NCBI GenBank assembly: GCA_963773645.1
Contig: CAVZBV010000002.1
Location: forward strand, 1,242,600 to 1,282,599
Length of the DNA stretch: 40,000 nucleotides
Direction of reading: 5' to 3'
Source of the DNA: an uncultured Acidobacteriaceae bacterium
GTDB lineage: Bacteria; Acidobacteriota; Terriglobia; Terriglobales; Acidobacteriaceae
The notes under the pieces were generated by a model that worked only from the letters and a program-made list of their open reading frames with translations, made no database searches and was not told where the DNA came from. Both the position numbers and the translations under genes were made by a program. Below are positions 16,492 through 38,661 of this stretch, piece by piece. The number at the start of each line of letters is the position of its first letter. Positions within the stretch are counted from its first letter, which is position 1.

Positions 16492-16502
16492 CCGAGACCT
16501 GG

Positions 16503-18955: not shown

Positions 18956-18978
18956 AAACAACCTGATTGCGCACAAAA

Positions 18979-20285: not shown

Positions 20286-20296
20286 CCAGGTCTCGG

Positions 20297-21443: not shown

Positions 21444-21541
21444 CCCGCCCGCCCCACTCGCCAGCGCGCGGGCCCCGGCCCCAGGGTCCAAAGTTCCCGT
21501 GTGGGGGGTGTAGCACTTTTGCCGTCGCCATACACAAACCC
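21444..21541 (-). repeat. right terminal inverted repeat of element A (98 bp)
   Basis: Exact reverse complement of 9621-9718. Confidence 0.85.
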
Positions 21542-21555
21542 CATCCTTCGTTGAC
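21542..21555 (+). repeat. direct repeat copy 2 of CATCCTTCGTTGAC (shared junction between elements A and B)
   Basis: Sits exactly between the right TIR of A (ends 21541) and the left TIR of B (starts 21556). Confidence 0.8.
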
Positions 21556-21645
21556 GGGTAGGATGTGGCGACGGGAAAAACGGCTACACCCCCTCCCCGG
21601 AACTTGGACCCCAGAGGCCGGGGCCCGCGCGCGAGCGAGTGGGGC
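21556..21645 (+). repeat. left terminal inverted repeat of element B (90 bp)
   Basis: GGGTAGGATGTGGCGACGGGAAAAACGGCTACACCCCCTCCCCGGAACTTGGACCCCAGAGGCCGGGGCCCGCGCGCGAGCGAGTGGGGC is the exact reverse complement of 35874-35963. Confidence 0.85.
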
Positions 21646-21710
21646 AGGCGAACTGGGCCGGATGTACGAGCGATGGGCGAGTGGGTGAGCGTGGGTGCGA
21701 CGCGGCTTCT

Positions 21711-21902
21711 CTACCGGGAACGTTTGGCGGGCTTCCTCTTGAGAATGTCCTTGGCTGCTAGCCTTGCCAGACCGAGGATAATGCCGGAATTGCTGAGAAT
21801 GGCATCTGGCCACAGAGCATTAGCCGCCCTTTGGAGCGTGGAGAAATCCTCTGTATTCATCTTGACGTTTACTTGGACTGTACGTTTTCCGCCGGTTTCC
21901 AT
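21711..21902 (-). CDS. small protein, possibly ribbon-helix-helix DNA-binding
   Basis: 63 aa. KRTVQVNVKMNTEDFSTLQRAANAL fits a beta-strand plus helix RHH start. Located just inside the left TIR. Weak call. Confidence 0.35.
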   Translation of the reverse strand: METGGKRTVQVNVKMNTEDFSTLQRAANALWPDAILSNSGIILGLARLAAKDILKRKPAKRSR

Positions 21903-22012
21903 TTCCTCACTATCGTTACGTTCGTACCCTTTTGTAGCAACGATACTGTTGGTACCTTTCGTACCATGGACCGACAGCTATTCGGCACGGGGCCATTCGC
22001 AGGGAGTGCATT

Positions 22013-23176: not shown

Positions 23177-23339
23177 GAACAGGAACACCCAGAATTAGAA
23201 GTGCGGGCTGAAGGTCCTCCGGTAGCGAAATTGCCGAGACGCCAGCAACTTACTAAGGACTGTTGGGGCAAAAGTACCAGATTCTTTTACACGGAAGGCA
23301 ACGTAACCAACAGGAACTCTTGAACCAAAAGGGGGATTT

Positions 23340-23780
23340 ATGAAACGCTTCACAGCACAGCTGGTCCTGGTAGTTGCGGTGACGCTTTCCGCGTCGATGG
23401 CAAACGCAGCGATGACAGGTGCCAGTCTTGAAAAACTTTGTACTAGTTGGACTGTAGACGCAAGCCTAGCCGCGTCGGTTGGCCCCGGCAAGACTTACGA
23501 AAACCTGGATGGGTTTAGAAATGCCACTTGGTGCCAAGCATACATCGGAGGTTACGGGGCCGGTATCAAAGGCGCGATGGGAACCGACGACAAGGGCATC
23601 ATGGGCACCTACACTATTGAACAGGGAGTTACTCCGCCGCAAGTTGTCAAAGTATTCAAACAGTACATTGCGAACCATCCAGAAGAAGAGAACAAACCCG
23701 CTGGCGATGTGTTATACCACGCCATGACCAGCTCCGGGCTACTCACCCTGGTAGTGGAAGAGAAATCAGGCAATCAATGA
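23340..23780 (+). CDS. small secreted protein, unknown function (faint resemblance to Rap1a/Tai4-type immunity proteins)
   Basis: Signal peptide MKRFTAQLVLVVAVTLSASMANA. The pattern TGASLEKLC...WCQAYIGGYG recalls the C...C-x-Y-I-x-G pattern of Rap1a-like domains, from memory only. Confidence 0.6.
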   Translation: MKRFTAQLVLVVAVTLSASMANAAMTGASLEKLCTSWTVDASLAASVGPGKTYENLDGFRNATWCQAYIGGYGAGIKGAMGTDDKGIMGTYTIEQGVTPPQVVKVFKQYIANHPEEENKPAGDVLYHAMTSSGLLTLVVEEKSGNQ

Positions 23781-23898
23781 AAACCTTTAAGACTTTTTCA
23801 AAACACAGATAGCGGCAGCGTAGGATTCGGAGACTCCGAGTGTCGACGATATAGCAGAAATCGTAATCTCGGCGATTATCTTCGACACCTGCCCGACC

Positions 23899-25392
23899 TT
23901 AGTCCACCGTCACATCCCGAGTTTCCTTCATTCCTAAATACGATCGGAACATAGGGTGTACCTGAAAACGCGGTATATTACGGAGATTCAAATTCCCCAA
24001 CTGGTGAGGGCCCACGTAGCTGCTCCCGCTTCGACGAACAGCCTTGATACCCCCAACAGCTTGCGCACGAAGGAAACCGATTCGCCAGAGGATGTCAATT
24101 AACAGATCTGGTTCCTGATTATGGACCCAGCCAGCATCCTGATGCAGACCGTACTCACCAGTTGTTATAGCTAAACAAAGAAGGTCGAGCTCGTCACGTT
24201 TGAAGCCATAAGAGCGACCCCGAAACACGTCAAAAATGCTGGATAGGCCAGGGTACTGGAACCGATATTCAGCGGAGATGTCATTCGTTCTAGCCTCGGA
24301 GTATCCACTCTCAGCTTGGCTGATCACCCGATACTCGATAGGCCAGACTTCAGCGCTGCGACTTTCCTCCAAAGCATCGGTACAAAATTGTATGATCTCG
24401 CGCGGACGATATAGAGTTCGGTCCACCAAATAATTAAAGGACTTAGCTCCCCGATAGTCGAGAGTGTCCACAAAAACGGAGTTCCAACAGTCCGTATCAT
24501 CACTTGAAATGAGACCAGGTACAGTGTGGCGGATACGCTTAGCGACGAGCTCAAGCAACATCGTTTCATTCCAATTTATGGTTTCCATTACATCGCGATA
24601 CTTCTGCGCATCCTCGTAAAGTGACGGAATGCTGTCGTAAAGTTCTTTGCGCAAAGTAACGAGCACTCGAACCGGTTTGGTCACCTCATTGATTGAAACT
24701 GCCGCTTGGAACAATCCGGCGACGAATGCCTTAGCATCTTCGGACGCGTCCCATCCGCGATCCAGCTCATCTACTAGAACGACCACTTTCTGGCGACTAC
24801 AAATCTCGGCTATCCCTGGCAAAAGCGGCTCGATCTCTTCGAGTTTATAAAGACGAAAGAGTTCTTTCGATTTGACAGCCGTTTCATACTTACCAACCTT
24901 TAGCCCCTCCATTCTCTTCAGATAAGAAACTAAGGTCCCAATTGGATTGGTTTGCTCCCCACTGTGATTGTCTCGTAGATACTCGTAAATCTTCGCGGCA
25001 GCCCCGGTCTTTAGTCGACGGCCTTGCTTATTGAGGCCCTTCATTACAAGGACGTAAATCAGATACTTCCAGGCTGCTGCATATGCACCCTGTTTTGCCC
25101 AAGCACCCTCCGTTTCATGTTTCATGATAGATGACAGCATTTCGTAGGAATAATTTTCGGGTGCAAGCTCAATGACGAGGGAGCCCTTCGCGCGTTCTCG
25201 CTCAGCGACCATTTTGAAAATTGCACTCTTACCTGAGCCCCTATTTCCTAAAATTACAAACTTTTCTCCAGCAAGTACCCGACGAAAGGTTTCTGATTCA
25301 ACGAAGTATTCACGTAATCCTCTATCTATGTCACGCTCTGCCGCCGGGGCTCCAAAGCTAAGCGACTTGAAACCGTGAGGCATAATACTCAT
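23899..25392 (-). CDS. P-loop NTPase (KAP/STAND-like), unknown function
   Basis: Walker A ILGNRGSGKSA and Walker B VVVLVDELDRGWD, followed by a long helical C-terminal region. 497 aa. Confidence 0.8.
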   Translation of the reverse strand: MSIMPHGFKSLSFGAPAAERDIDRGLREYFVESETFRRVLAGEKFVILGNRGSGKSAIFKMVAERERAKGSLVIELAPENYSYEMLSSIMKHETEGAWAKQGAYAAAWKYLIYVLVMKGLNKQGRRLKTGAAAKIYEYLRDNHSGEQTNPIGTLVSYLKRMEGLKVGKYETAVKSKELFRLYKLEEIEPLLPGIAEICSRQKVVVLVDELDRGWDASEDAKAFVAGLFQAAVSINEVTKPVRVLVTLRKELYDSIPSLYEDAQKYRDVMETINWNETMLLELVAKRIRHTVPGLISSDDTDCWNSVFVDTLDYRGAKSFNYLVDRTLYRPREIIQFCTDALEESRSAEVWPIEYRVISQAESGYSEARTNDISAEYRFQYPGLSSIFDVFRGRSYGFKRDELDLLCLAITTGEYGLHQDAGWVHNQEPDLLIDILWRIGFLRAQAVGGIKAVRRSGSSYVGPHQLGNLNLRNIPRFQVHPMFRSYLGMKETRDVTVD

Positions 25393-25610
25393 GTTGTTAA
25401 ACCAGAATTTCTTTTGTTGATTTCCAAATCGGCACCATTCTACGCCTATTCTCGCGTCGAATACACATTTGTGAACGTGGTAAGATAGACCCTAATTGTG
25501 ATTCATGTTCAAAGTCAGACCGTACGCTCGTCTACTTATCCGGTAAAATGCCGACGAGTCTGCGCAAGCGCCTGCCAGTGCTGATGGGATTTGTGATCCG
25601 TACTGACGAT

Positions 25611-26126
25611 TCATGGTGCAAAGAGCGCCTTCAGGAACAGAGCGCCAGCTAGCAGCGGGAGCCAGGTCTTGACCTCACGTAAGGAACGTGCCAGCATCTC
25701 AATCCCTCTGGTGAACGGCCACGGACTATCCTGCCCAAAGGCGGCAGTACATTCTCTTGCCCAACGATCCGGGTTTTGAGCCGCGTACTTGATTCTGCGT
25801 CGGTGCAATTCACCCATCAACTTGGCCCCGGCCAAGCTGATCGCGAGACTCAGTATCACGAGGCCAAGCGAACTCTTTGCCCAAAGATTGTTCAAGATCG
25901 TCTGAACAGAGCCGAATGCCGCCCAGTTGGCACCAATTAACGCCAAGGACAACTGGAAACTGCTATCGGTGAGCTTACCAGTCCAATACTCGAAGTCTTG
26001 TTTCACGGCCCTCTGCGCTTCACCAGGGTTGGCGTAGAGGGCCACAATGTGCCTCTGGGATTCCGTGACTTTGTCCGTTCCGACCGAAGAAGAATTCGAT
26101 GACCCCTCAACCACGATGCCCTCCAC
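25611..26126 (-). CDS. integral membrane protein, unknown function
   Basis: 171 aa from a GTG start. Hydrophobic segments FQLSLALIGANWAAFG, SSLGLVILSLAISLAGA, WLPLLAGALFLKALF. Same strand as, and upstream of, the NTPase gene. The start is uncertain. Confidence 0.55.
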   Translation of the reverse strand: MEGIVVEGSSNSSSVGTDKVTESQRHIVALYANPGEAQRAVKQDFEYWTGKLTDSSFQLSLALIGANWAAFGSVQTILNNLWAKSSLGLVILSLAISLAGAKLMGELHRRRIKYAAQNPDRWARECTAAFGQDSPWPFTRGIEMLARSLREVKTWLPLLAGALFLKALFAP

Positions 26127-26338
26127 CGGCCCCGTTCCTCTTTCTTGCCGCCTTCTTTGCTACCTTTTTCTTTGCTGGCCTCTTTTTCTTTGCTGGCCTC
26201 TTTTTCGACGCCTTTTTCATGGCCACGTTTCGCCTCCGTTTGGATATTACCGATCTCGCATTGCTGCTGCACACTTATGCTACACCCACGAATGTTAGAC
26301 GAAGGAAAGCGCCAGTCTGTTCTGAATTTGTAACAAGA

Positions 26339-27874
26339 TTACGACTCACAGCCTTCGTTCGTCGAGACTTCCGCCAGCTTCGCCAGGGCCTGCCAATGCC
26401 GTGGATGCGGGCGATAGCCCTCGCGAATCCGACCCGCGTACCAGCGGGAAACTCCAATCCTCTTTGCGATAGACGTTACCGAGGCTTGCGCAAGTGCTGG
26501 CTGAATTTTCTCCGAAAACACCTGTTCGTTGAGCCATGTCGGTTGCTTCGCTGGATTCCAAGCAGCCCGCGCCTGTGCGAGCTTACGGTGCGTCGCCGCT
26601 TCTTTGGCAATCGCTTCCGGGGTATGTCCGGCAACGCGTCCCACTTTTGCGGCTTCCACTAGGCGCTTGGTTGCAACGTCAACGTCACATTCAGCGCAGT
26701 TTATTGAAGTGCCTTGAACTGGTTTGCCACACCCACGGCAAACCCTCTCAGGTTTCGGAACCTTGACCAATGGAACGTCACTTCCCTTTGCTTCGCGCTT
26801 GTTCCGCTGAGTAAGGCGGGTCGCTATCCGTTGCCGAGCAACAGTTGATGGGGGCCTGGAAATCGATGCCCAAAGCGCTTGCGCAACATATTCTGCTATC
26901 GGAGCCACGAGCTTGCTCCATGTGTGCGAAGTTTGGGCAAGTTTGATCGCTAAGGATGAAACCACCCGACAGTTCCCATTGCGATCCTCCCAGAAGTCCG
27001 ATTTGCGAAGAGGCTCATTCTGAAGCCAATTAAGAACGAATGCGTCCACCTTGGGGCGGCAGACTTCCATCAGGTCGCAAGCGAGGGAATCTCTGTTAGG
27101 TGTATCCACATGGAGCACACCAATACCTGGATCAAGGCCCATTACAGTTGCAGAAAGACGTGACTCACTTTCCAAAAGTGCGTAGAGAAGATTGAGCAGG
27201 GCGTTGGGCGGACTAGAGGCAAGACGCGGGCTATGGGTCAAGGGTGAGATGCGCGAGCCGAACCGTTTCCAATGTTCGGGCACGCGGCGCTCGTCCTTGC
27301 GTGGCCAGCAAATCGGAACATCAGACCACGCCTGCCAGTATAGCTTCGCTGCTTGGGCCTCAATCAGCCTTACTCGGTCGATGCTCTCAGCGCTCATCAA
27401 CTCATCTCTGAATCGATCAATCGCCTCTGCTGTGGAAGAATCGCACAGCATGTCGCGAACGAGCGAGGCCTGTCCCGCCAGCTTTTGACCGATGAGTTCT
27501 TTGGAAATCTTGAGCGCCGTCCCATTGCCGAGTGCGAGCGCTTGCGCTCTGCGGAGCTTGGCATCCGATGAAGAGATGGGGCCAGTGACAGCGAGCACCT
27601 TGCCTCTGCGGTCAAGCATTACGAACGCCGCGCCCACGTCAGAAATCCAGCGGAGAGCCTCAAGGGTGATGAAGCCGTCGCTCCCGATCATTACCAGCCT
27701 GCGCAGCCCGTGACCCACACGGGGCAGGCGGATGGTCCGGCGCTCGTCGGCGATTCCATCGTGCAGGATCAAATGCCCAGCGTTCACCTGGACGCGAATG
27801 CCATAGCCGTAAAGTGTGATAACTCCACGCCGGGGCAAAGCTGGACACCCGAGTTCTGCACTCGCATTGTTCAT
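26339..27874 (-). CDS. cas1: Cas1 family integrase (casposase-like) with C-terminal Zn-ribbon and HTH
   Basis: Cas1 hallmarks: N-terminal beta domain (LYGYGIRVQVNAGHLILHDG...IRLP...LVMIGSDGFITLEALRWISDVGAAFVMLD), LRRAQ, IEAQAAKLYW (E172), PPNALLNLLYALLESE, GLDPGIGVLH (H255), DSLACDLMEVCRPKVD (D267/E270). The C-terminal extension has CRGC...CAEC (379-396) and a helix-turn-helix (SVTSIAKRIGVSRWYAGRIREG). Confidence 0.9.
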   Translation of the reverse strand: MNNASAELGCPALPRRGVITLYGYGIRVQVNAGHLILHDGIADERRTIRLPRVGHGLRRLVMIGSDGFITLEALRWISDVGAAFVMLDRRGKVLAVTGPISSSDAKLRRAQALALGNGTALKISKELIGQKLAGQASLVRDMLCDSSTAEAIDRFRDELMSAESIDRVRLIEAQAAKLYWQAWSDVPICWPRKDERRVPEHWKRFGSRISPLTHSPRLASSPPNALLNLLYALLESESRLSATVMGLDPGIGVLHVDTPNRDSLACDLMEVCRPKVDAFVLNWLQNEPLRKSDFWEDRNGNCRVVSSLAIKLAQTSHTWSKLVAPIAEYVAQALWASISRPPSTVARQRIATRLTQRNKREAKGSDVPLVKVPKPERVCRGCGKPVQGTSINCAECDVDVATKRLVEAAKVGRVAGHTPEAIAKEAATHRKLAQARAAWNPAKQPTWLNEQVFSEKIQPALAQASVTSIAKRIGVSRWYAGRIREGYRPHPRHWQALAKLAEVSTNEGCES

Positions 27875-28632
27875 GTCACTTTCCGTTTCTTGCTCGATTT
27901 ACGTTTCGTCTTTCCGTATCGGGAGGATTGGAAAGGATTGTCGGGCCTTGTTGCGCCAACGAGGTTAAGCGCCGTTCTAGTCCGAATGCCGAATACAGCT
28001 CCAGCGAGAGCGCGTGATAAGAACCACAGTTGCTTCCACAAGGTGGATGGACGGCGTGAAAATTCGCAACGCGGGAAGCGGGGATCACGTCTGGCTTCGA
28101 TAAACGCTTCGGCATGTTCAGATAGATAACGTGGGAGGACGCTGCCCGCAGTGATGGGCCAAGCCGGGACCTCCACTTCCTGTGAGTCAGACCCGAGAGG
28201 CATGTCGATGGTCATAAACGCCTCCCGGCATAGGTTTCGAATCTTCCGAGGGGTTGTTTTGGGCGATAACAATGATTCGATCACATCAGGTTCGCCCCGA
28301 ACCTTGATTCGCTTTGTTGATTCTTCCTCTGCAATGAATTTCAGAATTTCACGCGACTCTTCGCGCTTTAGTGCGCTGATCCGATTCTGTTTCTTCGTCC
28401 GATCTAAAAGACCTTTTCGGATTTCCTCTTCGACTTCTTTCTCGACCCTTGCCACTTCGTGGGGACTGTAATCGATAGTTCGGTTCGGATCTGCCATCAA
28501 TCGCTCATACTCTTGTCGGTCATGGAACAGCTTGTACTTTCCTTCGGCAAGTCGCCAGAAGTCCAAATAAAGTTGCTGGGACAGGACATAAAGCTCCCAG
28601 GGGTTCGCGCGATTGGGTCTACCGGCAGGCAT
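27871..28632 (-). CDS. hypothetical protein translationally coupled to cas1
   Basis: 253 aa. Its TGA overlaps the cas1 ATG (ATGA at 27871-27874). Charged helical middle and a Lys/Arg-rich C-terminus. No motif recognised. Confidence 0.6.
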   Translation of the reverse strand: MPAGRPNRANPWELYVLSQQLYLDFWRLAEGKYKLFHDRQEYERLMADPNRTIDYSPHEVARVEKEVEEEIRKGLLDRTKKQNRISALKREESREILKFIAEEESTKRIKVRGEPDVIESLLSPKTTPRKIRNLCREAFMTIDMPLGSDSQEVEVPAWPITAGSVLPRYLSEHAEAFIEARRDPRFPRCEFSRRPSTLWKQLWFLSRALAGAVFGIRTRTALNLVGATRPDNPFQSSRYGKTKRKSSKKRKVT

Positions 28633-28752
28633 AATTAAAGGGCAAAATCTATCTCGTGTGTCTTGACTGAATCAGAAATAGCCATACCATACATAGTATA
28701 TCACTTGTTCTTGCAGCATACTAGTGCAAGGGCAATTACGGGAGGCACCAAG

Positions 28753-28983
28753 ATGCATCGAGATGAAACCGTACTGGCGGTCGGAATGATTGAAGCTGCG
28801 CGGCGGCTAGGGTTGTCGGCCCGCACCGTGGCGACGCTCGTATCGCGCCGCGAGCTTCCGAGCCGGAAGGTGGGCCGCCGGAGAATCATCCCGGTTGTGG
28901 CCCTAGAAGCTTTCGTCGGGCGTGACCATCTGAACATTCGGCCTGAGCCTTCAGGCAGCGTGGAGAGAACTACCGCAGGGTGA
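28753..28983 (+). CDS. excisionase/MerR-type helix-turn-helix DNA-binding protein
   Basis: MIEAARRLGLSARTVATLVSRRELPSRKVGRRRIIPVVALEAFV matches the HTH_17/Xis-type pattern. GGAGG lies 7 nt upstream of the ATG at 28753 (the ORF track start at 28663 is probably too early). Confidence 0.75.
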   Translation: MHRDETVLAVGMIEAARRLGLSARTVATLVSRRELPSRKVGRRRIIPVVALEAFVGRDHLNIRPEPSGSVERTTAG

Positions 28984-28986
28984 GCC

Positions 28987-29634
28987 ATGCCTTCAAAACG
29001 AAGGCCCCAGGCTCGCCGTGGAAGGAAACCTAGGGCCGGACCAAATTCGATAACTGGCAATAAAATACCACGCTCCAAGCGGGCAAACAAGCCTCGCCGC
29101 CGTGTGCATCGAGATTCCTCGCGTACAGGTCTGATTTCCAATCGTCATCGCGCACCCCGCCCATCCTCTCTTACCGTAGAGCAACTAAAGACGCGCGCGG
29201 ATGTACTGGCTGCGCACTCCGACATGTTGCGTGACCGCAACCTAACGGCGTCCCAAGCCGCTCGGGATAACGGGGTCTCTGTCCGCGATTTCTGGAAATA
29301 CATACCTAAAGCATTCAAAAAGGATTCAAGTGGACGGATTCGCGCTATAGCCGACCGCTATGTGCGAAGGATGGAGATTCCTGGACGGGATGGTCCCATC
29401 TTAATCACGGTCAGAGGGTCCAAAGCTAAGCGTGAATTTGCGCGATTCCGTAATGATGTCTTCAGTTTTCTCGCAGGGAATCGTTCTGCCCTTGACAAAT
29501 GGGACGGCGTAACTATCCAGGGTCATGAATTACTGACGGACCCTCGCATTATCCGAATGCTTGGCGAGCAAGGCAATCTCCCAGAACACTTCGGAAGCGA
29601 GCAAGTCATTCCGTACTCCAGAGGTGCCGCATGA
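28987..29634 (+). CDS. hypothetical protein with a highly basic N-terminus and a possible internal HTH
   Basis: 215 aa. The first ~60 aa are Arg/Lys/Pro-rich. LTASQAARDNGVSVRDFWKYI is HTH-like. The gene overlaps the next one by 4 nt. Confidence 0.6.
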   Translation: MPSKRRPQARRGRKPRAGPNSITGNKIPRSKRANKPRRRVHRDSSRTGLISNRHRAPRPSSLTVEQLKTRADVLAAHSDMLRDRNLTASQAARDNGVSVRDFWKYIPKAFKKDSSGRIRAIADRYVRRMEIPGRDGPILITVRGSKAKREFARFRNDVFSFLAGNRSALDKWDGVTIQGHELLTDPRIIRMLGEQGNLPEHFGSEQVIPYSRGAA

Positions 29635-29924
29635 GACGCTGCAATCTCTGCGGTAGCACTCACAAGGTAACCCAGCATCACGTTGGAGGGCAGAATTTCA
29701 TTGCTTGGTTCACGATGTCGCTCTGCGCTAAGTGTCAACTAATTTTCCACGCGAGACAACGGGCAGCCGGAATAGATCTATGCTCCACACCGAATCCCTT
29801 TCACAGGCTCATCCGTGCGCTAAAGATGACAGTTCTGTTCATGTGGATGTTGCTCGATATGGTCGAAAAGGAGATTGATTCGGACATCGAGAAAGCTAAA
29901 GCTCTGCAGGGGAACTCAAAATGA
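29631..29924 (+). CDS. small HNH-like nuclease/zinc-finger protein
   Basis: CNLCGSTHKVTQHHVGGQN...LCAKCQLIFH fits the CxxC...HH...N...CxxC..H layout of HNH domains. 97 aa with a hydrophobic C-terminal stretch. Confidence 0.6.
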   Translation: MRRCNLCGSTHKVTQHHVGGQNFIAWFTMSLCAKCQLIFHARQRAAGIDLCSTPNPFHRLIRALKMTVLFMWMLLDMVEKEIDSDIEKAKALQGNSK

Positions 29925-29934
29925 GGGATTCGAA

Positions 29935-32900
29935 ATGATCGAAACCCACGATCTCTTCCTGCGCGCCCTTGCCGTGCCTGCAGCAAAAAAGAAGAAAAAG
30001 ACCAAGGATGGCGAAAAGTTCGAGAGCTACGTGGCTGACGAACCGAAGTGGCCAGACACCGTCGTTGCGTTCGATACTGAGAGCCGGATCACAGTAGATC
30101 AGTCGCTGACTTTTGGCGTGTGGCGACGCTGCAAGCTAGTCGGACAGAAATATGAGGTCATCGAAGAGGGGATCTTCCACGCTGATGACTTACCTGCGAA
30201 AGATATCAAAATTCTCGAAACATACATGGAGACGGCGGTCCCCGATGTACGGTCATTCCCTCCCCGCTTCCCGCTCTACTCGCGCTCCAAGTTCATGAAG
30301 AAACTTTTTTGGCCCGCGCTTAAGAAACACGGCGCTATGATCTGTGGACTGAACTTGCCTTATGACTTGAGCAGACTGGCCCTGGATTGGAAGGAAGGGA
30401 ACAAGGGCGAATGGTCACTAATCATGGCCCAATACGCTGATGGAAATGAAAACTGCAATTATCCACGTATTCTCATCACTCCCATTGATAGCAAAAAGGC
30501 GATTATCAAGCTGTGGAGACCTTGGAAAAAGGTTCAGCACGAATGGAAGGACGCGGGCAGGAAGATTCATTTCCTCGATCTGCGAACGCTGCTCTGGGCG
30601 CTTTATAACAAGTCTCACTCGCTCAAGAGTGCCTGTGACAATCGAAATGGCCCGTTCAAAGAACAAGACTTGCCACAAAAGGATGACCACGACCCTACTG
30701 GCGAGGTCATACCTGATGAAATTGAGCACTGCCGTCAGGATGTCCGCTGCACGGTCGCACTACTGAACGCTTGCAAGCGGGAATTCGATAAGCACTCGGA
30801 TATGGACCTGAAGCCGTGGGATGCCTACTCGCCTGCGAGCATGGCCAAGGCCTACCTCAAAGCAATGCGGATTGAAAGGCCTGCGGTTAAGTTTAAGGTG
30901 CCGGACAAGAAAAACGCCATTTGGATGCAATCCTACTTCGGCGGGCGCTCAGAATGCCGAATACGGCACGAAGTTGTTCCCGTCGTTCCAGTCGATTTCA
31001 CTTCCGAGTATCCGTCCTGCTGCGCAAATCTCGGCCTGTTCAAATTTCTCACCGCTAAACGTCTGAAGTTTGTCGATGACACGGCAAACATACAGCGGTT
31101 CGTCACGAACATCACCCACGAACAATGCTTTCAGCGTGGAACGTGGCATGATCTAAATTTTGTGGCCCGCGTGATCCCTGATGGAGACATCCTGCCCGTT
31201 AGGACTGTTTACGACGGTGTAAGTCACAATATCGGCAACAACTATTTATCTGCAAATCCTTCCCACCCAGAACCAGTTTATGTGGCTGGGCCCGACCTGG
31301 TTGCGGCAGTGATTCAGCAACCCGGAAAGATTCCGAACATTCAACAGGCATTCAGGATCGTCCCCTCGGGAAAGCAGCTTGGAATGCGAGCGGTAAGACT
31401 CCGAGGGAGAGTTCTGATCGACCCTAACGATGATCCCGTTGACCTGTTCACAAAAATCATCGAGGAGCGTAAACGCAACAAGAATGATCCCGATCTCTAC
31501 TATTGGCTCAAGATTCTCGCCAATTCAATTTACGGATTTTTCGTGGAACTGATCCCAGAACATTTTAAGCAGCCCAAGGCTGTGATGGTATTTTCTGGTG
31601 ATGAGAGCTTTCCCGATTTCTCCAGTGTGATCGAGCGCCGGGGGAAGTGGTTCGCGCCGTTCTTGGCGACTCTTATTACATCTGCGGGAAGGCTTTTGCT
31701 CTCCTTGCTAGAGGCAGAAGTCACACGGGTAAATGGCACCTATCTATACTGCGACACCGACAGTCTGGCAATTGTGGCATCGAAAAAAGGCGGCGCACTC
31801 CGCATTCCCGGAGCTCAAGACAAGCGCATTTTGACTTTGGATGAGGTTGACGAGATTACCACCAAATTTCAGGCGCTCAATCCGTACAACCCTAATGAAG
31901 TGCCGGACCTGCTAAATCTCACGGACGATAACTACGTTTGCTCGTGTTCGCATGAACTCAAAACCGAGCATGACGAAACCGGAGTTTGTGCGGCGCGCGG
32001 ATGCAAGTGCAAAGCGGGAAAAAAGGTGAGGCGGCAATTGTGGGGTTTGGGTATAGCCGCCAAAAGGTACGCGCTGTTTGAAAGGGTATTGGACAGACGC
32101 GGAAAATTAACAGACATAAGAATCGTCAATCCTAAAGCGCACGGGATCGGTTTCCTGTACCCGCCGAAAGACAAATCGAAAAATTGGAAAAAAGACGCGC
32201 CACTGTGGATTTACGAGATGTGGGATTACATCGTGCGCGGATTCCTGGGATTACCGCGCAAACTACCCGCGTGGGCTTCCCTTCCACAAATGATGCGCTT
32301 CTCCGTATCGACTTGGAACGTGCTCAAAATGCTGGGTATGTGGGAGGGCGCACGTCCCCACAATTTTATGTTCATGGTAATGACCTCCGAGGCGTTTTCG
32401 TTTAACTTCGATTTTGATAACAAACCAAGCAAAAAACCGATGGTGATTGTGCCGTTTTCGAGCAAGCAAGGCGAATGGAGCAAACTCGAAGGGATTGACA
32501 TTCACAATAAGAACCGGCGCGGGAAGTACCGGCGTTACCGGCTGGACGATCCCGATTTTCACCCTTTCACCTACGCGCACATGATTGAGGAATACGTCCG
32601 GCACCCCGAGGCCAAGAGCCCGGGCCCGGACGGGAAGCCCTGCACAGCAGAAACTCGCGGGCTTTTAAAGCGAGCGCACATCACAGCAGGGCAGATTCGC
32701 TATATCGATAAAGAAACATCCTCAATGTGGACGCATGGCGACGATTTCAGTGTAGTCACCGATCATGACGAGACCGGGTTCAGGGTGATCGAGTACGGGA
32801 AAAGCCGAAAAATCGTACTTCCAAACTCGTTGAAACGCGAGATCGAACAAATTAAATTACGCGAGTTGATGCGAAGAGGAATTGGGCAGCACACCATTGA

Positions 32901-32982
32901 AAAAGCGCTGCACACGCATGTACGCGTAAATACCTACAGCAAAATTCTGGCCGCAATCGCGGAATACAACACCGGCACCTAA
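29935..32982 (+). CDS. polB: family B DNA polymerase with 3'-5' exonuclease domain
   Basis: ExoI VVAFDTES, ExoII GLNLPYDLSRL, ExoIII EIEHCRQDV. Motif A VDFTSEYPS, motif B KILANSIYGFF, motif C LYCDTDSLAI, KxY AAKRYALF. The start was chosen at the ATG after GAGGG, downstream of the preceding stop; the ORF track start at 29875 overlaps the HNH gene. Confidence 0.92.
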   Translation: MIETHDLFLRALAVPAAKKKKKTKDGEKFESYVADEPKWPDTVVAFDTESRITVDQSLTFGVWRRCKLVGQKYEVIEEGIFHADDLPAKDIKILETYMETAVPDVRSFPPRFPLYSRSKFMKKLFWPALKKHGAMICGLNLPYDLSRLALDWKEGNKGEWSLIMAQYADGNENCNYPRILITPIDSKKAIIKLWRPWKKVQHEWKDAGRKIHFLDLRTLLWALYNKSHSLKSACDNRNGPFKEQDLPQKDDHDPTGEVIPDEIEHCRQDVRCTVALLNACKREFDKHSDMDLKPWDAYSPASMAKAYLKAMRIERPAVKFKVPDKKNAIWMQSYFGGRSECRIRHEVVPVVPVDFTSEYPSCCANLGLFKFLTAKRLKFVDDTANIQRFVTNITHEQCFQRGTWHDLNFVARVIPDGDILPVRTVYDGVSHNIGNNYLSANPSHPEPVYVAGPDLVAAVIQQPGKIPNIQQAFRIVPSGKQLGMRAVRLRGRVLIDPNDDPVDLFTKIIEERKRNKNDPDLYYWLKILANSIYGFFVELIPEHFKQPKAVMVFSGDESFPDFSSVIERRGKWFAPFLATLITSAGRLLLSLLEAEVTRVNGTYLYCDTDSLAIVASKKGGALRIPGAQDKRILTLDEVDEITTKFQALNPYNPNEVPDLLNLTDDNYVCSCSHELKTEHDETGVCAARGCKCKAGKKVRRQLWGLGIAAKRYALFERVLDRRGKLTDIRIVNPKAHGIGFLYPPKDKSKNWKKDAPLWIYEMWDYIVRGFLGLPRKLPAWASLPQMMRFSVSTWNVLKMLGMWEGARPHNFMFMVMTSEAFSFNFDFDNKPSKKPMVIVPFSSKQGEWSKLEGIDIHNKNRRGKYRRYRLDDPDFHPFTYAHMIEEYVRHPEAKSPGPDGKPCTAETRGLLKRAHITAGQIRYIDKETSSMWTHGDDFSVVTDHDETGFRVIEYGKSRKIVLPNSLKREIEQIKLRELMRRGIGQHTIEKALHTHVRVNTYSKILAAIAEYNTGT

Positions 32983-33071
32983 GCCCGACCTATCGGCACA
33001 GCTTTCAGAGCATCGGCCATGCCTCTTGCTAGGTGTTACCATATTCTCCTTAAGTAGTATTTCAGTAAACC

Positions 33072-35810
33072 GTGAATACGATCCGCTCCACAGACTGGAC
33101 GGCCCACTCAGTCCGTATCGCTGCCTGCGGTCTCGGGGCCGTACTCGGTGGCCCTTTGGGAGGTGTGCTGGGCGGCTGGCTCGGCAATGCCCTGGGACCG
33201 TCGGCAGTCGACCTGATCACTCATTACGCCGAAAAGTTCGGTGAAGGGGCCGCGGTAAAACTGCTCGATCTCGGCGCTGGCTCCTTTGTGCAGGGCTCGG
33301 AGATGGAGATGGGTCCCACGGAGTTAGAAGCTCTCTACCGTGAAACTCTTCAATTCAGTCTTAACGAGCTTTCCACATCAATCTCCGGGAACCGTTATGA
33401 GGACTGGTTCAATCACTGGCAATGCTGCCTTGCATCCAAAGCAAATCTGAATCTCTCTGATGTCACACTGGGCCAGTCAGACAAGGGCAACCCGCATGAC
33501 CAACTTCGTCTGGTCCTGGAAACTCTCGACGCCCAGGGAGCGGCGATGGCGCGGAACGATTTGTCGCTCAACATCACGCTCCGCGCACTTCCAGAAGAAC
33601 TCCTATCCAAACTGATAGCCAAGCTTCCAGAATCCCTCGACAAGAATTTTCGCGCGCTCATTGTTGGATCAAAATACGAAAGGGCATGGAAGGAAAAGTT
33701 GCTGATATTCGAGCGATCCGCTCGGAAAGCGCTCGAAGATATCGATCAAACAACACAGAGAACCGAATCCAAGGTGGACAGGATCGGCGAAGACGCAAAG
33801 GCGATCCGAGAGCTGCTCGAAAAGGAATGGAGAAGCGCGCAACAGCAAGGCCGACTCAGTCCGGAACAGTTGAAGGACAAAGACCAAGAGATCGCACGCC
33901 TGACCGAACAGCTTCGCAAATTGCAGGATGAACTTGCGGCGCGGTCATCCGAGCCGGAAGAAGTCCGCCTGTCGACACTTATTGCGACCGGAGACCTCGC
34001 AGGGGCAATTCGACTGAAATCAAACCAGGTAAACTCGCGCAGAAGCGAGGCACAGATGTTGCCGCGCGATCTCTTCGAACTGGGCAAGCTTCATGAACTG
34101 CGCTTCGATTGGCCCAATGCTTTACGGGCGTACCGTGAAGCATGGGAGCTACGCCAGGACCCGGAATTCGGATTTTCTTACGCCTATTATGCACGGCTAC
34201 AGAATCATTTCACAGAAGCCATCGCGGTATATCAGAATCTCCTTCCGACCTCCCGGAACCCTGCTGATCGCGCGATGACGCTCAACAACATGGCCGTTCT
34301 CTACCGCGAGACGCAGCGGATGAAGGACGCCGAAGCGGCATTCGTTGAGGCGCTGTCGATTCGTCACGAGTTGGCCAAAGCAAACCCGGAGGCCTACCTC
34401 CCGATTGTAGCGATGACGCTCAACAACATGGCCATTCTCTACCGTGACACGCAGCGGATGAAGGACGCCGAAGCGGCATACGGGGAGGCGCTATCGAAGT
34501 ATCGCGAGTTGGCCAAAGCGAACCCGGAGGCCTACCTCCCGGATGTAGCGATGACGCTCAACAACCTGGCCATTCTCTACAGCGACACGCAGCGGATGAA
34601 GGGCGCCGAAGCGGCATTCGGGGAGGCGCTGTCGAAGTATCGCGAGTTGGCCAAAGCGAACCCGGAGGCCTACCTCCCGTATGTAGCGATGACGCTCAAC
34701 AACCTGGCGAATCTCTACCGCGACGCGCAGCGGATGAAGGACGCCGAAGCGGCATTCGGGGAGGCGCTGTCGAATCGTCGCGAGTTGGCCAAAGCGAACC
34801 CGGAAGCCTACCTCCCGGATGTAGCCACGACGCTCAATAACCTGGCCGTTCTCTACAGCGACGCGCAGCGGATGAAGGACGCCGAAGCGGCATACGGGGA
34901 GGCGCTGTCGATTCGTCGCGAGTTGGCCAAAGCGAACCCGGAGGCCTACCTCCCGTATGTAGCCACGACGCTCAATAACCTGGCCGTTCTCTACAGCGAC
35001 GCGCAGCGGATGAAGGACGCCGAAGCGGCATACGGGGAGGCGCTGTCGATTCGTCACGAGTTGGCCAAAGCGAACCCGGAGGCCTACCTCCCGGATGTAG
35101 CCACGACGCTCAACAACCTGGCCGTTCTCTACCGCGAGACGCAGCGGATGAAGGACGCCGAAGCGGCATTCGTTGAGGCGCTGTCGATTCGTCACGAGTT
35201 GGCCAAAGCAAACCCGGAGGCCTACCTCCCGGATGTAGCCACGACGCTCAACAATCTGGCCGTTCTCTACAGCGACACGCAGCGGATGAAGGACGCCGAA
35301 GGGGCATACGGGGAGGCGCTGTCGAAGTATCGCGAGTTGGCCAAAGCGAACCCGGAGGCCTACCTCCGGTATGTAGCGATGACGCTCAACAACCTGGCCG
35401 TTCTCTACAGCGACACGCAGCGGATGAAGGACGCCGAAGGGGCATACGGGGAGGCGCTGTCGAAGTATCGCGAGTTGGCCAAAGCGAACCCGGAGGCCTA
35501 CCTCCCGGATGTAGCCACGACGCTCAACGACTTGGCGAATCTCTACCGCGACGTGCAGCGGATGAAGGACGCCGAGAGCTGCTGCTTGGAGGCGAGCGCT
35601 ATTCTTGAGCCTCTGTGGCAGGCCAATCTAGAAGTGCACGGCGACCAGTTCGCCAGGATTCTGTTGACTCAGGCTCTACTCTGTGAGCTGGGGGGAAGGT
35701 CTAACACAGAGGCGTGCCGTCTGGCCAGGCGTGCTTTCGATGCTGCATACCAGGCTCAGCTCAAGCACATCGCCCAGGAGATGATAGATAACTTTTGCAG
35801 TAAAACTTGA
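33072..35810 (+). CDS. glycine-zipper N-terminal domain / coiled-coil / TPR-like repeat protein
   Basis: GTG start. N-terminus GLGAVLGGPLGGVLGGWLGNALG (GxxxG zipper). Charged coiled-coil region (about aa 230-300). Then ten 46-aa repeats of the kinesin-light-chain/TPR_10-12 type (TLNNLAVLYxDTQRMKDAEAAYGEALSxxRELAKANPEAYLPDVA). Confidence 0.85.
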   Translation: MNTIRSTDWTAHSVRIAACGLGAVLGGPLGGVLGGWLGNALGPSAVDLITHYAEKFGEGAAVKLLDLGAGSFVQGSEMEMGPTELEALYRETLQFSLNELSTSISGNRYEDWFNHWQCCLASKANLNLSDVTLGQSDKGNPHDQLRLVLETLDAQGAAMARNDLSLNITLRALPEELLSKLIAKLPESLDKNFRALIVGSKYERAWKEKLLIFERSARKALEDIDQTTQRTESKVDRIGEDAKAIRELLEKEWRSAQQQGRLSPEQLKDKDQEIARLTEQLRKLQDELAARSSEPEEVRLSTLIATGDLAGAIRLKSNQVNSRRSEAQMLPRDLFELGKLHELRFDWPNALRAYREAWELRQDPEFGFSYAYYARLQNHFTEAIAVYQNLLPTSRNPADRAMTLNNMAVLYRETQRMKDAEAAFVEALSIRHELAKANPEAYLPIVAMTLNNMAILYRDTQRMKDAEAAYGEALSKYRELAKANPEAYLPDVAMTLNNLAILYSDTQRMKGAEAAFGEALSKYRELAKANPEAYLPYVAMTLNNLANLYRDAQRMKDAEAAFGEALSNRRELAKANPEAYLPDVATTLNNLAVLYSDAQRMKDAEAAYGEALSIRRELAKANPEAYLPYVATTLNNLAVLYSDAQRMKDAEAAYGEALSIRHELAKANPEAYLPDVATTLNNLAVLYRETQRMKDAEAAFVEALSIRHELAKANPEAYLPDVATTLNNLAVLYSDTQRMKDAEGAYGEALSKYRELAKANPEAYLRYVAMTLNNLAVLYSDTQRMKDAEGAYGEALSKYRELAKANPEAYLPDVATTLNDLANLYRDVQRMKDAESCCLEASAILEPLWQANLEVHGDQFARILLTQALLCELGGRSNTEACRLARRAFDAAYQAQLKHIAQEMIDNFCSKT
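34275..35654 (+). repeat. in-frame tandem array: nine near-identical 138-bp units plus one degenerate unit (coding TPR-like repeats)
   Basis: Units start at 34275, 34413 and so on (period 138 nt), with the ninth at 35379 and a degenerate tenth at 35517. Adjacent units differ at only a few nucleotides. Confidence 0.9.
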
Positions 35811-35873
35811 ATTCTGAGGCATCCGTCCCCCCAAGCCGACCCCGCCTGCCCGCTAGCCCCGCACACCCCTCTC

Positions 35874-35963
35874 GCCCCACTCGCTCGCGCGCGGGCCCCG
35901 GCCTCTGGGGTCCAAGTTCCGGGGAGGGGGTGTAGCCGTTTTTCCCGTCGCCACATCCTACCC
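35874..35963 (-). repeat. right terminal inverted repeat of element B (90 bp)
   Basis: Exact reverse complement of 21556-21645. Confidence 0.85.
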
Positions 35964-35977
35964 CATCCTTCGTTGAC
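35964..35977 (+). repeat. direct repeat copy 3 of CATCCTTCGTTGAC
   Basis: Immediately follows the right TIR of B and continues into unique sequence upstream of the kinase gene. Confidence 0.8.
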
Positions 35978-36001
35978 TAGCGGAGGCCACGTCCGTAAGA
36001 T
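35973..36001 (+). promoter_or_regulatory. candidate sigma70-type promoter of the Ser/Thr kinase gene, overlapping the target repeat
   Basis: TTGACT (35973-35978), a 17-nt spacer, then TAAGAT (35996-36001), about 30 nt before the GTG at 36031. Sequence match only. Confidence 0.3.
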
Positions 36002-36030
36002 GAAGCGACCCGAAAGCCAGGCATCGCATA

Positions 36031-38661
36031 GTGATCGGCCAGACCATCTCGCATTACCGAATCGTCGAGAAGCTCGGTGGCGGCGGTATGGGTGTCGTTT
36101 ACCGAGCCGAAGACATCAAACTGGGCCGTTCCGTCGCGCTCAAGTTTCTACCCGAAGATCTGGCTAAGGATCGCCAGGCCCTGGATCGCTTTCAGCGGGA
36201 AGCGCGGGCCGCGTCGGCGCTGAACCATCCCAACATCTGCACCATCCACGCGATTGACGAGGAAAACGGCCAGGCTTTCATCGTCATGGAGTTGCTCGAA
36301 GGACAGACCCTGAAACACCGCATTGGCGGCCGTCCGATGGATACGGAGACGCTTCTGAGTCTGGCGATTGAAATTGCCGACGCTTTGGATGCCGCGCATT
36401 CCAAAGGAATCATTCATCGCGATATCAAGCCGGCGAACATTTTCGTGACCAAACGTGGGCAGGCCAAGTTGCTGGACTTCGGTCTGGCGAAGCTAGCTCC
36501 GGAAAACCGTCTGGGCAGTTCGGAATCCGTGCTGCGAACGGCAACCGACGGGGCAATGGCAATGATGACCACTCCCGGCTCGACGGTTGGAACGGTGGCC
36601 TATATGTCGCCGGAGCAGGTTCGGGCCGAAGAACTTGACCCGCGCACCGATTTATTTGCTTTCGGTTCGGTGCTCTACGAAATGTCCACCGGATGCCTGG
36701 CGTTCCCGGGAAGCAGCAGTGGCGTAGTCTCAGAGGCCATTCTGAACCGCACTCCACCGCTTCCGTCGATCGCGAATCCAGCCATACCTCCTAAGCTAGA
36801 GGAGGTGATTTTCAAGGCGATCGAGAAGGAGCGCGAGTTTCGCTATCAGACAGCCGCCGAGTTGCGGGGAGACTTGAAGCGAATCAAGCGCGCGCTCGAC
36901 ACGTCACGCGTGCGTGCCGGCAGTGCGGTTGCCGCTCCACCGGGGACGGCTCCGGCCCCGGCGGTTGAGACTGCGGTGTCGCGAAGGCGCGTGCTGGTCA
37001 CGGCATTGGCAGCCGCTGCGATCGCGATGATCGCGGGCCTCGCCGGTGGAAGGTTTTTATTGCAACGCCCGGTGCAGGCCGCACTACCGATCTACCATCC
37101 GCTTACATTCCGCCGAGGCATGGTTCACGCTGCACGTTTTGCTCCTGACGGCAAGACCATCATCTACAGCGCTGCGTGGGAGGGCAAATCTTTGCAGCTG
37201 TTCACCACGCGGCCGGAAAGCCCAGAGTCGCATGAGTTGGAGCCGGCCGGAGCCGACGTCCTCGCCGTCTCGTCGTCCGGCGAAATGGCGCTTTCGCTGG
37301 GAAGCCGCCCGGTCGCCCAATTTCTCTATTCCGGCATACTCGCGCGCGTGCCTTTGGTCGGCGGCGCGCCGCGGGAGATCCTGGAGAATGTGGAATGGGC
37401 TGATTGGTCTCCGGATGGAAGCGCGCTGGCCATTGTGCGGCAGGAGCAAGGGCGGCACCGCCTGGAGTTTCCCCCGGGTAAGGTGCTCTATGAAGCCGAT
37501 GGATGGATTGGTCATATTCGCATTTCCCAGAAAGCAGACACCATCGCCGTTATTGACCACCCCCAACTGGGCGACGACGGTGGGGCGGTTGCCGTGGTTG
37601 ATCTGGCCGGGAAAAAGACAACTCTTTGTACCGGCTGGGACAGTATTCAGGGAATTGCATGGTCGCCCAGCGGCGATGAGATCTGGTTTACGGCCACGCG
37701 AACTGGTGGCGACCGGTCTCTCTATGCCGTCAACCTCGCGGGAACCGTCCGGCTGCTCGCGCGCGTTCCTGGAGAATTGACGTTGCTCGATGTTGGCCGG
37801 GAGGGGAATGTGCTCTTGACCCGCGGCAACGACCGGGCCGGAATAATCGGTCTGGCTCCCGGCGAGCCCAAAGAGCGCGATTTGTCCTGGCTCGACTGGT
37901 CGGTGCCAGGCGATCTGTCAGCCGATGGTCGAACCGTCCTTTTTGGGGAAACCGGGGAGGGTGGAGGACCAAAGTATGCGGTCTACCTGCGCAAAACGGA
38001 TGGTTCGCCGGCCATTCGTCTGAGTGAAGGAATTGGAACTGCATTATCTCCTGACGGGAAATGGGCGCTGGCGCGACCCAACGTGATTCCATCACCACTG
38101 GTCCTGTTGCCGACCGGGGTCGGTGAAGCGAAGCCTCTCACCCACGATTCGATCAATCACCTCTGGGTGCGATGGCTCCCCGATGGGAAACGACTGGTGT
38201 TCTCGGGCAACGAGGCGGGACACGGATTTCGTCTCTACGTAGAGTCTCCCGGGGAAGGCAAGCCGCGCCCGATCAGCCCGGAAGGCGTGAACCCGGCAGT
38301 GGTGATCTCTCCGAAGGGCGACTTTGCCGCCAGCGTCGGTCCGGATCACAAGTTTTACCTTTATCCCGTCGCCGGCGGCGAACCCGTGCTCGTCCCCGGC
38401 GCAGCGCCAGATGAGGCACCGACAGGCTTCTCCGCAGATGGCCGATTCCTTTACATCTACCGTTTTGGAGAGATTCCAGCCCGAGTGTTTGAGCTCGAGT
38501 TGTCGACCGGAAAAAGAACGCTCTGGAAAGAACTGGTGCCCGCCGATGCGGCGGGAATCGACACGATTCGGGGAATAACAATAACCCCGGACGCCAAGGC
38601 TTACGTGTACGGCTATATCCGAACCCTCTCAGATCTCTACCTCGTCGAAGGCTTGAAGTGA
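36031..38661 (+). CDS. Ser/Thr protein kinase with TM segment and C-terminal TolB/WD40-like beta-propeller
   Basis: GTG start. Glycine loop [31 protein letters not shown] helix [20 protein letters not shown]-terminal half has repeated PDG/SPDG...A/V motifs typical of PD40/TolB blades. Confidence 0.9.

Follow-up and report, generated by a model that had tools for sequence, protein, structure and literature searches.

Does the cas1 gene of this acidobacterial locus serve CRISPR adaptation, or does it belong to a mobile element? The gene lies in a module with the DNA polymerase gene polB, at 26339-32982 of a 40,000-nt stretch from an uncultured Acidobacteriaceae bacterium (the window, in whose numbering positions are given; L-numbers denote related loci and P-numbers PolB homologues). 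Casposons are thought to be ancestral to the CRISPR adaptation machinery. To our knowledge, casposon experiments to date have dealt only with archaeal enzymes of families 1 and 2, and published bacterial (family 3) elements number only a few. Our analysis indicated that the module is very likely the transposition and replication core of an intact casposon of the family 3 type, here called element B, in an acidobacterial chromosome. Casposons of this kind are already known; the acidobacterial group is large. All evidence came from metagenome-assembled genomes (MAGs) and metagenome assemblies.

Element B spans 21556-35963 (14,408 bp) and encloses the cas1/polB module. It is bounded by 90-nt terminal inverted repeats (TIRs) that are 100% complementary and carry the terminal sequence GGGTAGGATG...; their first 40 nt were 93% identical to the termini of L019 and L020. 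Of the two elements in the tandem array, element B is promoter-proximal and element A distal. A 14-bp target site duplication (TSD), CATCCTTCGTTGAC, occurs as three exact copies in the window (starting at 9607, 21542 and 35964), against 0.31 expected by chance. In the target context, the TSD is followed by the flank TAGCGGAGGCCACGTCCGTAAGAT, and the target stretch reads GGACCAGGCCATCCTTCGTTGACTAGCGGAGGCCACGTCCGTAAGATGAAG. Two metagenome contigs, L041 and L042, were 93-95% identical to the window in both flanks and joined window position 9620 to 35964 with a single 14-mer. This empty site shows that insertion, with duplication of the target, produced the 26-kb array. A near-identical element with a split polB was found at the same site in L043, and L044 and L045 carried the same core as element B with different cargo. 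The casposon traits found were a Cas1 with an intact active site, a PolB in the same element, enclosing TIRs, a TSD and a cas1 gene outside a CRISPR-cas locus. As judged from these sequence features, element B is probably an intact, recently active casposon. An earlier, sequence-only reading of the window had already proposed the 14-mer as a target and interpreted the module as casposon-derived, and the TIR/TSD-bounded element, the empty sites, the conserved core in relatives and the match of Cas1 to the Methanosarcina mazei casposase supported this interpretation.

The same reading had described six open reading frames (ORFs) in two divergent groups, and all six were found at the same coordinates (Table 1); those coordinates did not take in the tandem array to which the module belongs. 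The stop and start codons of the 253-aa gene and cas1 overlap as ATGA, and the 215-aa and 97-aa ORFs share 4 nt as described. The polB gene has two possible starts, ATG 29935, which lies 10 nt past the 97-aa ORF, and TTG 29875 further upstream; PolB residue numbers below count from the ATG. The region between the two groups is exactly 120 bp, the length originally given, if the helix-turn-helix (HTH) gene starts at ATG 28753; gene callers chose this same start in the identical or related contigs L044-L046. No CRISPR-like array was present in the window, as originally stated, and the absence of cas2 and cas4 was upheld for the ORFs scanned, a set that did not cover small ORFs exhaustively. Among the gene names proposed, Cas1, HTH_17 and PolB were backed by profiles, and HNH was left without a significant profile match.

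Cas1 matched the Pfam profile Cas_Cas1 (2.9e-40) and the NCBIfam profile TIGR00287 (1.7e-32). Its catalytic residues E172, H255, D267 and E270, previously reported as kept, were invariant in 21 diverse homologues. The Cas1 domain (residues ~20-320) is followed by a CxxC..CxxC zinc ribbon (379-396) and a C-terminal HTH (~455-505) with a PHPRHW motif. When the Cas1 family profile was compared with PDB chains, the best match was the M. mazei casposase 6opm (148 bits), and A. fulgidus Cas1 scored 135 bits. More than 120 homologues of at least 71% identity were found, all of ~505-515 aa. A full HMMER scan yielded 1140 clusters at 50% identity (E <= 1e-30), and the best 150 of these 1140 align over the full length. 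A similar C-terminal HTH on Cas1 and PolB, which is a family 2 trait, was ruled out, as hhalign gave the two C-terminal regions a probability of 0.2%.

PolB matched DNA_pol_B_2 (PF03175) at 3.9e-8, above the Pfam cutoff. This profile was matched by 20 of 22 PolB homologues (best 1.5e-10), whereas matches to PF00136 reached only 0.01 or weaker. The sequence-only reading had held that the polymerase and exonuclease motifs are preserved, and all of them proved invariant in the 22 homologues: ExoI (D47/E49), ExoII (D144) and ExoIII (D269), motif A (D354/S357/Y359/P360), motif B (K526/N530/Y533/G534), motif C (D607-T-D-S610) and KxY (K710/R711/Y712). The best PHROG was phrog_1907, the family of the protein-primed polymerases of phi29, PRD1 and phiCPV4. 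Comparison by hhalign gave a probability of 95.9% over 348 columns for these three polymerases versus 76% over 124 columns for E. coli Pol II. The literature places the 'PolB-HTH' enzymes of families 2 and 3 with the RNA-primed PolB3; these published enzymes were annotated solely through HHpred, with no Pfam domain assigned. The window PolB stands in the same context, with an HNH gene immediately upstream and a C-terminal helical domain. Against a PolB3-like nature stand its PF03175 score, far above that for PF00136, and the preference of hhalign for protein-primed PolBs. Identity as a piPolB of a pipolin was also considered. PolB is not a piPolB, because its KxY (KRY) and YxDTDS (YCDTDS) motifs are canonical, not KTRG with an altered PolC; the element also has no tyrosine recombinase.

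The remaining proteins of the module fell into conserved and accessory ones. HNH-like and 215-aa-like genes hold conserved positions in ~25 loci. The 97-aa family carries the motif CxxC...HH.GG.N...C..(C/H), in which C4, C7, H17, G19, G20 and C32 are invariant, and its AlphaFold2 model (predicted local distance difference test score, pLDDT, 81) places a helix after a beta-hairpin (beta-beta-alpha). Weak matches of the family were to RecA_dep_nuc (7e-4, in two of eight members), to DUF968 and to a PDB 'nicking endonuclease' (E = 0.16-0.4). On the basis of this motif and predicted topology, an HNH nuclease is plausible but unproven. The 215-aa protein gave no Pfam, NCBIfam, PHROG, PADLOC or PDB match; its gene occupies the position of the 'HTH protein' in AceAut-C1, a published bacterial casposon. 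The 215-aa family, in which Y105 and S145 are conserved, showed no similarity to the terminal proteins of phi29, PRD1 and phiCPV4. Since it resembles neither PDB entries nor these known terminal proteins, a terminal-protein role stays speculation. The small HTH protein matched HTH_17 of Pfam (1.4e-9) and the excisionase model TIGR01764 (9.8e-8). Its gene had been counted among the recurrent core genes, which did not hold: it is a sublineage accessory, and the recurrent HTH protein is the 215-aa one. The 253-aa gene, whose product had no Pfam, NCBIfam, PHROG or PADLOC match, is likewise a sublineage accessory outside the recurrent core. Among the loci compared, both genes were confined to the window's own sublineage. 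Homologues of the 253-aa protein were seen only in L022, L033 and L043-L046, and other loci had unrelated genes in the slot upstream of cas1. The HTH_17 and 253-aa proteins are probably lineage-specific accessories with a regulatory role.

A genome scan identified 40 related loci, all in Acidobacteriota (Terriglobia) MAGs and assigned to Acidobacteriaceae, Ca. Sulfotelmatobacter, Terriglobales and Acidoferrales. In about 30 of the 40, the 215-aa-like and 97-aa-like genes and polB read divergently from cas1. For about 20 loci, we defined TIRs of 35-148 nt, TSDs of 13-15 bp and element lengths of 5-20 kb; cargo varies between elements with the same core. No relatives were found in IMG/VR. The plasmid collection held only CRISPR Cas1 genes, on two plasmids, and no relatives of the element, and the phage collection gave weak matches to protein-primed phage polymerases and no relatives of the element. 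L025 was considered as a free linear form and rejected: its inverted-repeat contig ends are internal TIR sequence, so they mark an assembly break. Taken with the hundreds of close Cas1 homologues, the 40 loci indicated that casposons are common in soil Acidobacteriota. The casposon literature searched contained no description of a casposon from Acidobacteriota and none of promoter targeting by casposons.

Further tandem neighbours with a common TSD, in which a TIR end abuts the distal TSD copy, were present in L004, L011, L013 and L024/L036. The last two lie ~18 kb apart on chromosome OY970265.1; both copies have cas1, and the promoter-distal one seems to have an interruption in its polB region.

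To characterise the target, we reconstructed 22 empty sites and oriented them with the TSD ending in GTT(T)GAC. This end coincides with the -35 hexamer TTGAC of predicted sigma70-like promoters, and the flank carries a -10-like hexamer (TAAGAT, TATACT, TACACT, TAGACT or TAAACT) 16-19 nt after TTGACn. TAnnnT at a spacer of 16-19 was found in nine of 11 target classes versus 5.5% of all background TTGAC sites in these sequences (binomial P = 2e-10). Wherever a downstream ORF could be called, the gene on the -10 side reads away from the element; such genes encode Ser/Thr kinases, ValS, NuoB, LytTR regulators and a conserved secreted protein. In the window, TTGACT-17-TAAGAT is the only promoter-like site in 35700-36300 and the only TTGAC-N17-20-TAAGAT sequence. 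With respect to the promoter, elements of either orientation were seen. The -35 box becomes duplicated on insertion, and the core promoter stays whole. As for RNA genes as targets, ARAGORN detected no tRNA in the window or 20 loci, and no Rfam family was found in the window or seven loci. Among cas1-bearing elements with defined ends, a TIR was present on the promoter side in none and on the distal side in five. This pattern fits a model in which newcomers enter at the promoter-proximal TSD copy, with the caveat that L036 is a distal copy in which cas1 is kept and polB looks disrupted.

TIR sequences were then compared with the two core enzymes, using the first 40 nt in 16 elements; the termini surveyed numbered 22 and came from 20 of the loci L001-L031 and the two window elements. 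TIR similarity correlated strongly with PolB identity (Mantel r = 0.89, P = 2e-4; partial r = 0.89) and weakly with Cas1 identity (r = 0.26), and the identities of PolB and Cas1 were uncorrelated (r = 0.17). Either the divergent modules recombine, with the TIRs following the PolB operon, or products of the PolB operon recognise the TIRs. In the latter case, the casposase would need only the shared GGG(G)T terminus. This covariation bears on the claim that casposons are self-synthesising.

The following mechanism would accommodate these observations. The 511-aa casposase, with its zinc ribbon and HTH, would bind the GGG(G)T... termini and attach the 3'-OH of each to the target at points offset by 14 bp; repair of the gaps would make the TSD. 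Target choice would depend on GTT(T)GAC plus the -10-side flank, so that a second element would enter the promoter-proximal TSD copy and a polar array would form. The PolB operon, comprising the 215-aa putative DNA-binding protein, the HNH-like nuclease and PolB-HTH, would copy the element and act on the TIRs; this last step is proposed because TIR sequence follows the PolB lineage, not the Cas1 lineage.

Element A (9621-21541, 11,921 bp) lies directly upstream of element B and has perfect 98-nt TIRs of the class found in L008, L010, L013 and L027; the TIRs of A and B are of a related class (82% similar). No cas1 was found in element A. Its polB fragments were 89-98% identical in tblastn to residues ~390-665 of P0238. 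Since these fragments lie inside TIR boundaries, element A is a decayed casposon and not a miniature derivative; it is a casposon of another sublineage, wrecked by insertion sequence (IS) elements. Three IS3-family copies, one of them partial, lie within 8 kb inside element A and are 100% identical, and the full copies encode 343-aa rve transposase ORFs. Their identity suggests very recent IS activity and IS-mediated deletion in element A. The type I restriction-modification (R-M) genes of element A matched PADLOC MTase_I (2.9e-234) and Specificity_I (2e-21) and the Pfam domains N6_Mtase, HSDR_N_2 and Methylase_S.

The cargo of element B at 22013-26126 looks defence- or conflict-related; its PADLOC matches were weak, and no complete known defence system was recognised in it. 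On the other side of the core, the 912-aa protein has its TPR units encoded by nine tandem 138-nt repeats (34272-35675), whose identity to the reference copy is 72-100%. Outside the elements, a 70-nt inverted match (81%) pairs the start of the kinase gene (36031-36100) with sequence upstream of a beta-lactamase-family gene (7356-7425); a paralogous kinase gene may have its 5' end in the latter.

Table 1. Coordinates of elements A and B, their genes and their insertion site in the window.
Feature	Position	Strand	Remarks
TSD copy 1 (CATCCTTCGTTGAC)	9607-9620	+	Abuts element A TIR at 9621
Element A left TIR	9621-9718	+	98 nt, starts GGGTTTGTGTATGGCGACGGCAAAA; 100% complementary to 21444-21541
Type I R-M methyltransferase and specificity subunit	9823-12924	+	655 aa and 377 aa; 3' end of the latter cut by IS
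Partial IS3-family copy	12902-14025	-	Identical to parts of 16117-17720 and 19068-20671; rve domain
Element A polB fragments	13992-14327, 15611-16120	+	Truncated on both sides by IS3 copies
ISL3 transposase gene	14350-15603		Splits polB remnant; ISL3 domains 6.8e-69
Two full inverted IS3-family copies	16117-17720, 19068-20671		1604-nt arms, 100% complementary, 1.3 kb apart
Element A right TIR	21444-21541	-	98 nt
TSD copy 2	21542-21555	+	Common to elements A and B
Element B left TIR	21556-21645	+	Starts GGGTAGGATGTGGCGACGGGAAAAA; 100% complementary to 35874-35963
Trypsin-like peptidase (cargo)	22013-23176	+	Pfam; PADLOC RT-Protease-type domain 6e-16
Rap1a-like (immunity) protein (cargo)	23340-23780	+	Pfam
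P-loop/ORC-CDC6-like ATPase (cargo)	23899-25392	-	497 aa; Pfam; PHROG 13260, 2e-36
171-aa ORF (cargo)	25611-26126	-	Element B
cas1	26339-27874	-	511 aa; predicted casposase: Cas1 domain, zinc ribbon, C-terminal HTH
253-aa ORF	27871-28632	-	Function not assigned; accessory gene in variable slot
Divergent control region	28633-28752		120 bp; promoter-like TTGACT-16-TACCAT at 28663-28690, + strand
HTH_17/excisionase-family gene	28663/28753-28983	+	76 aa from ATG 28753
215-aa ORF	28987-29634	+	Basic; conserved core 'HTH protein' upstream of HNH and PolB
97-aa ORF	29631-29924	+	HNH-like zinc-finger protein
polB	29875/29935-32982	+	1015 aa from ATG 29935; C-terminal helical (HTH-like) domain
TPR-repeat protein (cargo)	33072-35810	+	912 aa; same gene in L043
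Element B right TIR	35874-35963	-	90 nt
TSD copy 3	35964-35977	+	Promoter-proximal copy
Host promoter-like site TTGACT-17-TAAGAT	35973-36001	+	-35 hexamer is the 3' edge of the TSD
Ser/Thr kinase gene	36031-38661		Downstream of TTGACT-17-TAAGAT site

One relative carries CRISPR components. L021, from the Terriglobales MAG JBAVUO010000016.1, is a TIR/TSD-bounded casposon (2360-18555) whose Cas1 is 69% identical to that of the window. Directly downstream of its cas1, at L021:11627-16678 and all inside the element, are a gene for a 732-aa Cas12m homologue (PDB 23vw, 4e-40), a CRISPR array and an HD-helicase cas3 (TIGR01587, 4.5e-35). The array consists of ~nine 37-nt repeats (GCAGCAAAGCGAGTCAGAGCGCCTAGTACTCTGAAAC) with unique spacers of 31-39 nt. 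No cas2, cas4 or cas6 was recognised in L021, and no protospacer for its spacers was found among the sequences gathered in the analysis. Given L021, the lack of a CRISPR link does not extend to the family as a whole. The locus could bear on the move of Cas1 from transposition to adaptation.

Could Cas1 then be a CRISPR adaptation integrase, or double as one, the cluster being a remnant or trans-acting adaptation module? L021, in which cas1 is followed by the Cas12m-like gene, the nine-repeat array and cas3, points in this direction, as does the fact that the window Cas1 passes the cutoff of the general NCBIfam cas1 model. However, an adaptation module has cas1 and cas2 beside an array, and the window ORFs scanned include no cas2 or cas4 and the window no array; only one of the 41 sequences searched, L021, has an array at all. 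The window cas1 is enclosed together with polB by TIRs and a TSD at a site that also exists empty, the CRISPR locus of L021 itself lies within a TIR/TSD-bounded casposon, and the Cas1 family profile prefers the casposase to CRISPR Cas1. We consider an adaptation module highly improbable here. Element B could also be an integrated virus- or plasmid-like linear replicon, polinton-like and protein-capped, that uses Cas1 merely for lysogenising. The nearest profiles of PolB, PF03175 and phrog_1907, are those of protein-primed viral polymerases, every element terminus opens with GGG(G), as PRD1 DNA does, and the basic 215-aa gene just upstream of HNH and polB sits roughly where phages have the terminal-protein gene. 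Yet neither Pfam nor PHROGs revealed a capsid, packaging or lysis gene, the viral, phage and plasmid collections held no relatives, the 215-aa family is unlike known terminal proteins, and the cargo is variable and host- or defence-related in appearance, all of which makes such a replicon very unlikely.

There is equally little to recommend the view that element B is a fixed, immobile island whose cas1 and polB are decaying or are kept because they serve the host, for example in defence or repair. Element A illustrates the rapid decay of such elements, the L043 copy has a split polB, and the evidence comes solely from MAGs and metagenome assemblies. Against this stand the identical TIRs of element B, its intact core ORFs with their catalytic residues, and a site that is polymorphic among strains 93-95% identical. 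Moreover, insertions of different lineages are found at no fewer than 11 different promoters, and such a spread requires that transposition took place repeatedly and recently.

Several points weigh against reading element B as an active casposon of the family 3 type. PolB is very divergent in sequence: its AlphaFold2 model, built from the 22-sequence alignment, was poor (mean pLDDT 50), a Foldseek search of this model against PDB gave no significant hit (top, Pol alpha, E = 0.03), and phmmer and profile searches of PDB returned just a motif C match to Pol alpha (E ~0.007). The 97-aa protein had no significant HNH match in Pfam or NCBIfam, and Foldseek of its model found nothing significant. 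In the literature consulted, integration of TIR-ended DNA by Cas1 alone is demonstrated only for family 1 and family 2 enzymes, and integration by the window Cas1 is presumed from homology with these. The proposed relationship with AceAut-C1 depends on how that element was annotated in print and on machine-read alignment rows that are prone to errors. The promoters are predictions from consensus alone, and the target classes include paralogous kinase promoters and so may lack full independence. The correlation between TIRs and PolB could reflect linkage, that is, joint inheritance with cas1 recombining, without a functional tie. Finally, the order in which elements A and B inserted is judged from decay, not dated.

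A wider interpretation is possible, and we advance it tentatively: the elements would form a distinct, very abundant lineage in which the casposase picks the upstream edge of a sigma70-type core promoter and the PolB operon sets the TIRs, and the L021 casposase would possibly take part in spacer acquisition. The -35 TTGAC and the -10-side flank would be recognised, perhaps through the zinc-ribbon/HTH tail or through promoter-bound RNA polymerase, and polar, CRISPR-like tandem arrays would result. Protein priming might start replication at the G-run termini, with the 215-aa protein serving as the primer, and the casposase of L021 might serve, or once have served, spacer acquisition. Insertion at the -35 edge is a testable target rule; if true, it would represent a new 'safe-harbour' strategy of casposons and possibly a programmable site preference. 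With its exact ends, exact 14-bp target and natural empty sites, element B offers a direct basis for an integration assay.

We compared element B with the published casposon families. Family 3 is defined as the bacterial casposons (Krupovic et al. 2014, PMC4046053; also 2016, PMC4779613). In AceAut-C1 of Ca. 'Acetothermum autotrophicum', the gene order is PolB-HTH, HNH (divergent), HTH protein and, further on, Cas1-Zf (PMC4046053 supplement). Element B resembles family 3 in its bacterial host, its intergenic insertion upstream of genes, its genes in the positions of the HTH protein and HNH, its PolB with a C-terminal HTH-like domain, its 14-15-bp TSD and its length of ~14 kb. It shares with AceAut-C1 a Cas1 with a zinc-binding domain and C-terminal HTH, and the nucleoside 2-deoxyribosyltransferase cargo of L044 and L045 recurs there. 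TIRs starting GGGGTA recall NitAL212-C1 of Nitrosomonas sp. AL212, which has TIRs starting GGGGTATG and a 14-bp TSD. The Cas1 alignment in the Krupovic 2014 supplement was machine-read, with duplicated rows and optical character recognition errors, and was used qualitatively; in it, the window Cas1 was 41-45% identical to AceAut-C1 rows over ~180 aa and 33% identical to StrAlb-C1, and the family 1, family 2 and A. fulgidus Cas1 rows aligned more weakly. Because gene order, the Cas1-Zn-ribbon-HTH architecture and Cas1 similarity match AceAut-C1, element B is filed, on these sequence grounds, as a family-3-type (AceAut-C1-like) casposon. It differs from published family 3 elements in its host phylum, Acidobacteriota, in the very large size of its clade (the 1140 clusters) and in the GTT(T)GAC target motif at -35 boxes, which is absent from their TSDs. 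The window PolB also prefers protein-primed profiles over PF00136 and Pol II, whereas family 2 and 3 PolBs are placed with PolB3, a comparison made by description.

Family 2, from Euryarchaeota (A. boonei, M. mazei), shares the Cas1-HTH, PolB-HTH, putative HNH and HTH core, the 14-15-bp TSD and site-specific insertion. Tandem arrays in Methanosarcina also share one TSD with one copy inactivated, and among PDB chains, the profile of the window Cas1 family matched the M. mazei casposase best. In contrast to element B, family 2 has archaeal hosts, targets tRNA 3' ends or other intergenic sites and has a Cas1 without a zinc ribbon, and the C-terminal HTHs of its Cas1 and PolB are alike, unlike those of the window. 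Family 1, from Thaumarchaeota, has a PolB matching DNA_pol_B_2 as well as TIRs and a TSD; however, its Cas1 is compact without extra domains, it has no HNH, and it targets the 3' end of aEF-2. The family 1 PolB is ~600 aa and clearly related to the polymerases of the His1 and His2 viruses, whereas the window PolB, with 1015 aa, is far more divergent and has weak protein-primed matches.

Beyond casposons, CRISPR Cas1-Cas2 is similar in its homologous integrase, its staggered, fixed-length target duplication and, judging from the tandem arrays, the polar growth of an array by addition next to the flank; it differs in that here Cas2 is absent, what is inserted is an element of 12-14 kb bearing TIRs, and the flank is a promoter, not a leader. 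Tn7 at attTn7 and other 'safe-harbour' site-specific transposons likewise insert repeatedly at one conserved site and spare the gene next to it, and live and dead elements accumulate there as islands. Their transposase chemistry and target-selection machinery are different, and the site occupied by elements A and B is the upstream edge of a predicted core promoter.

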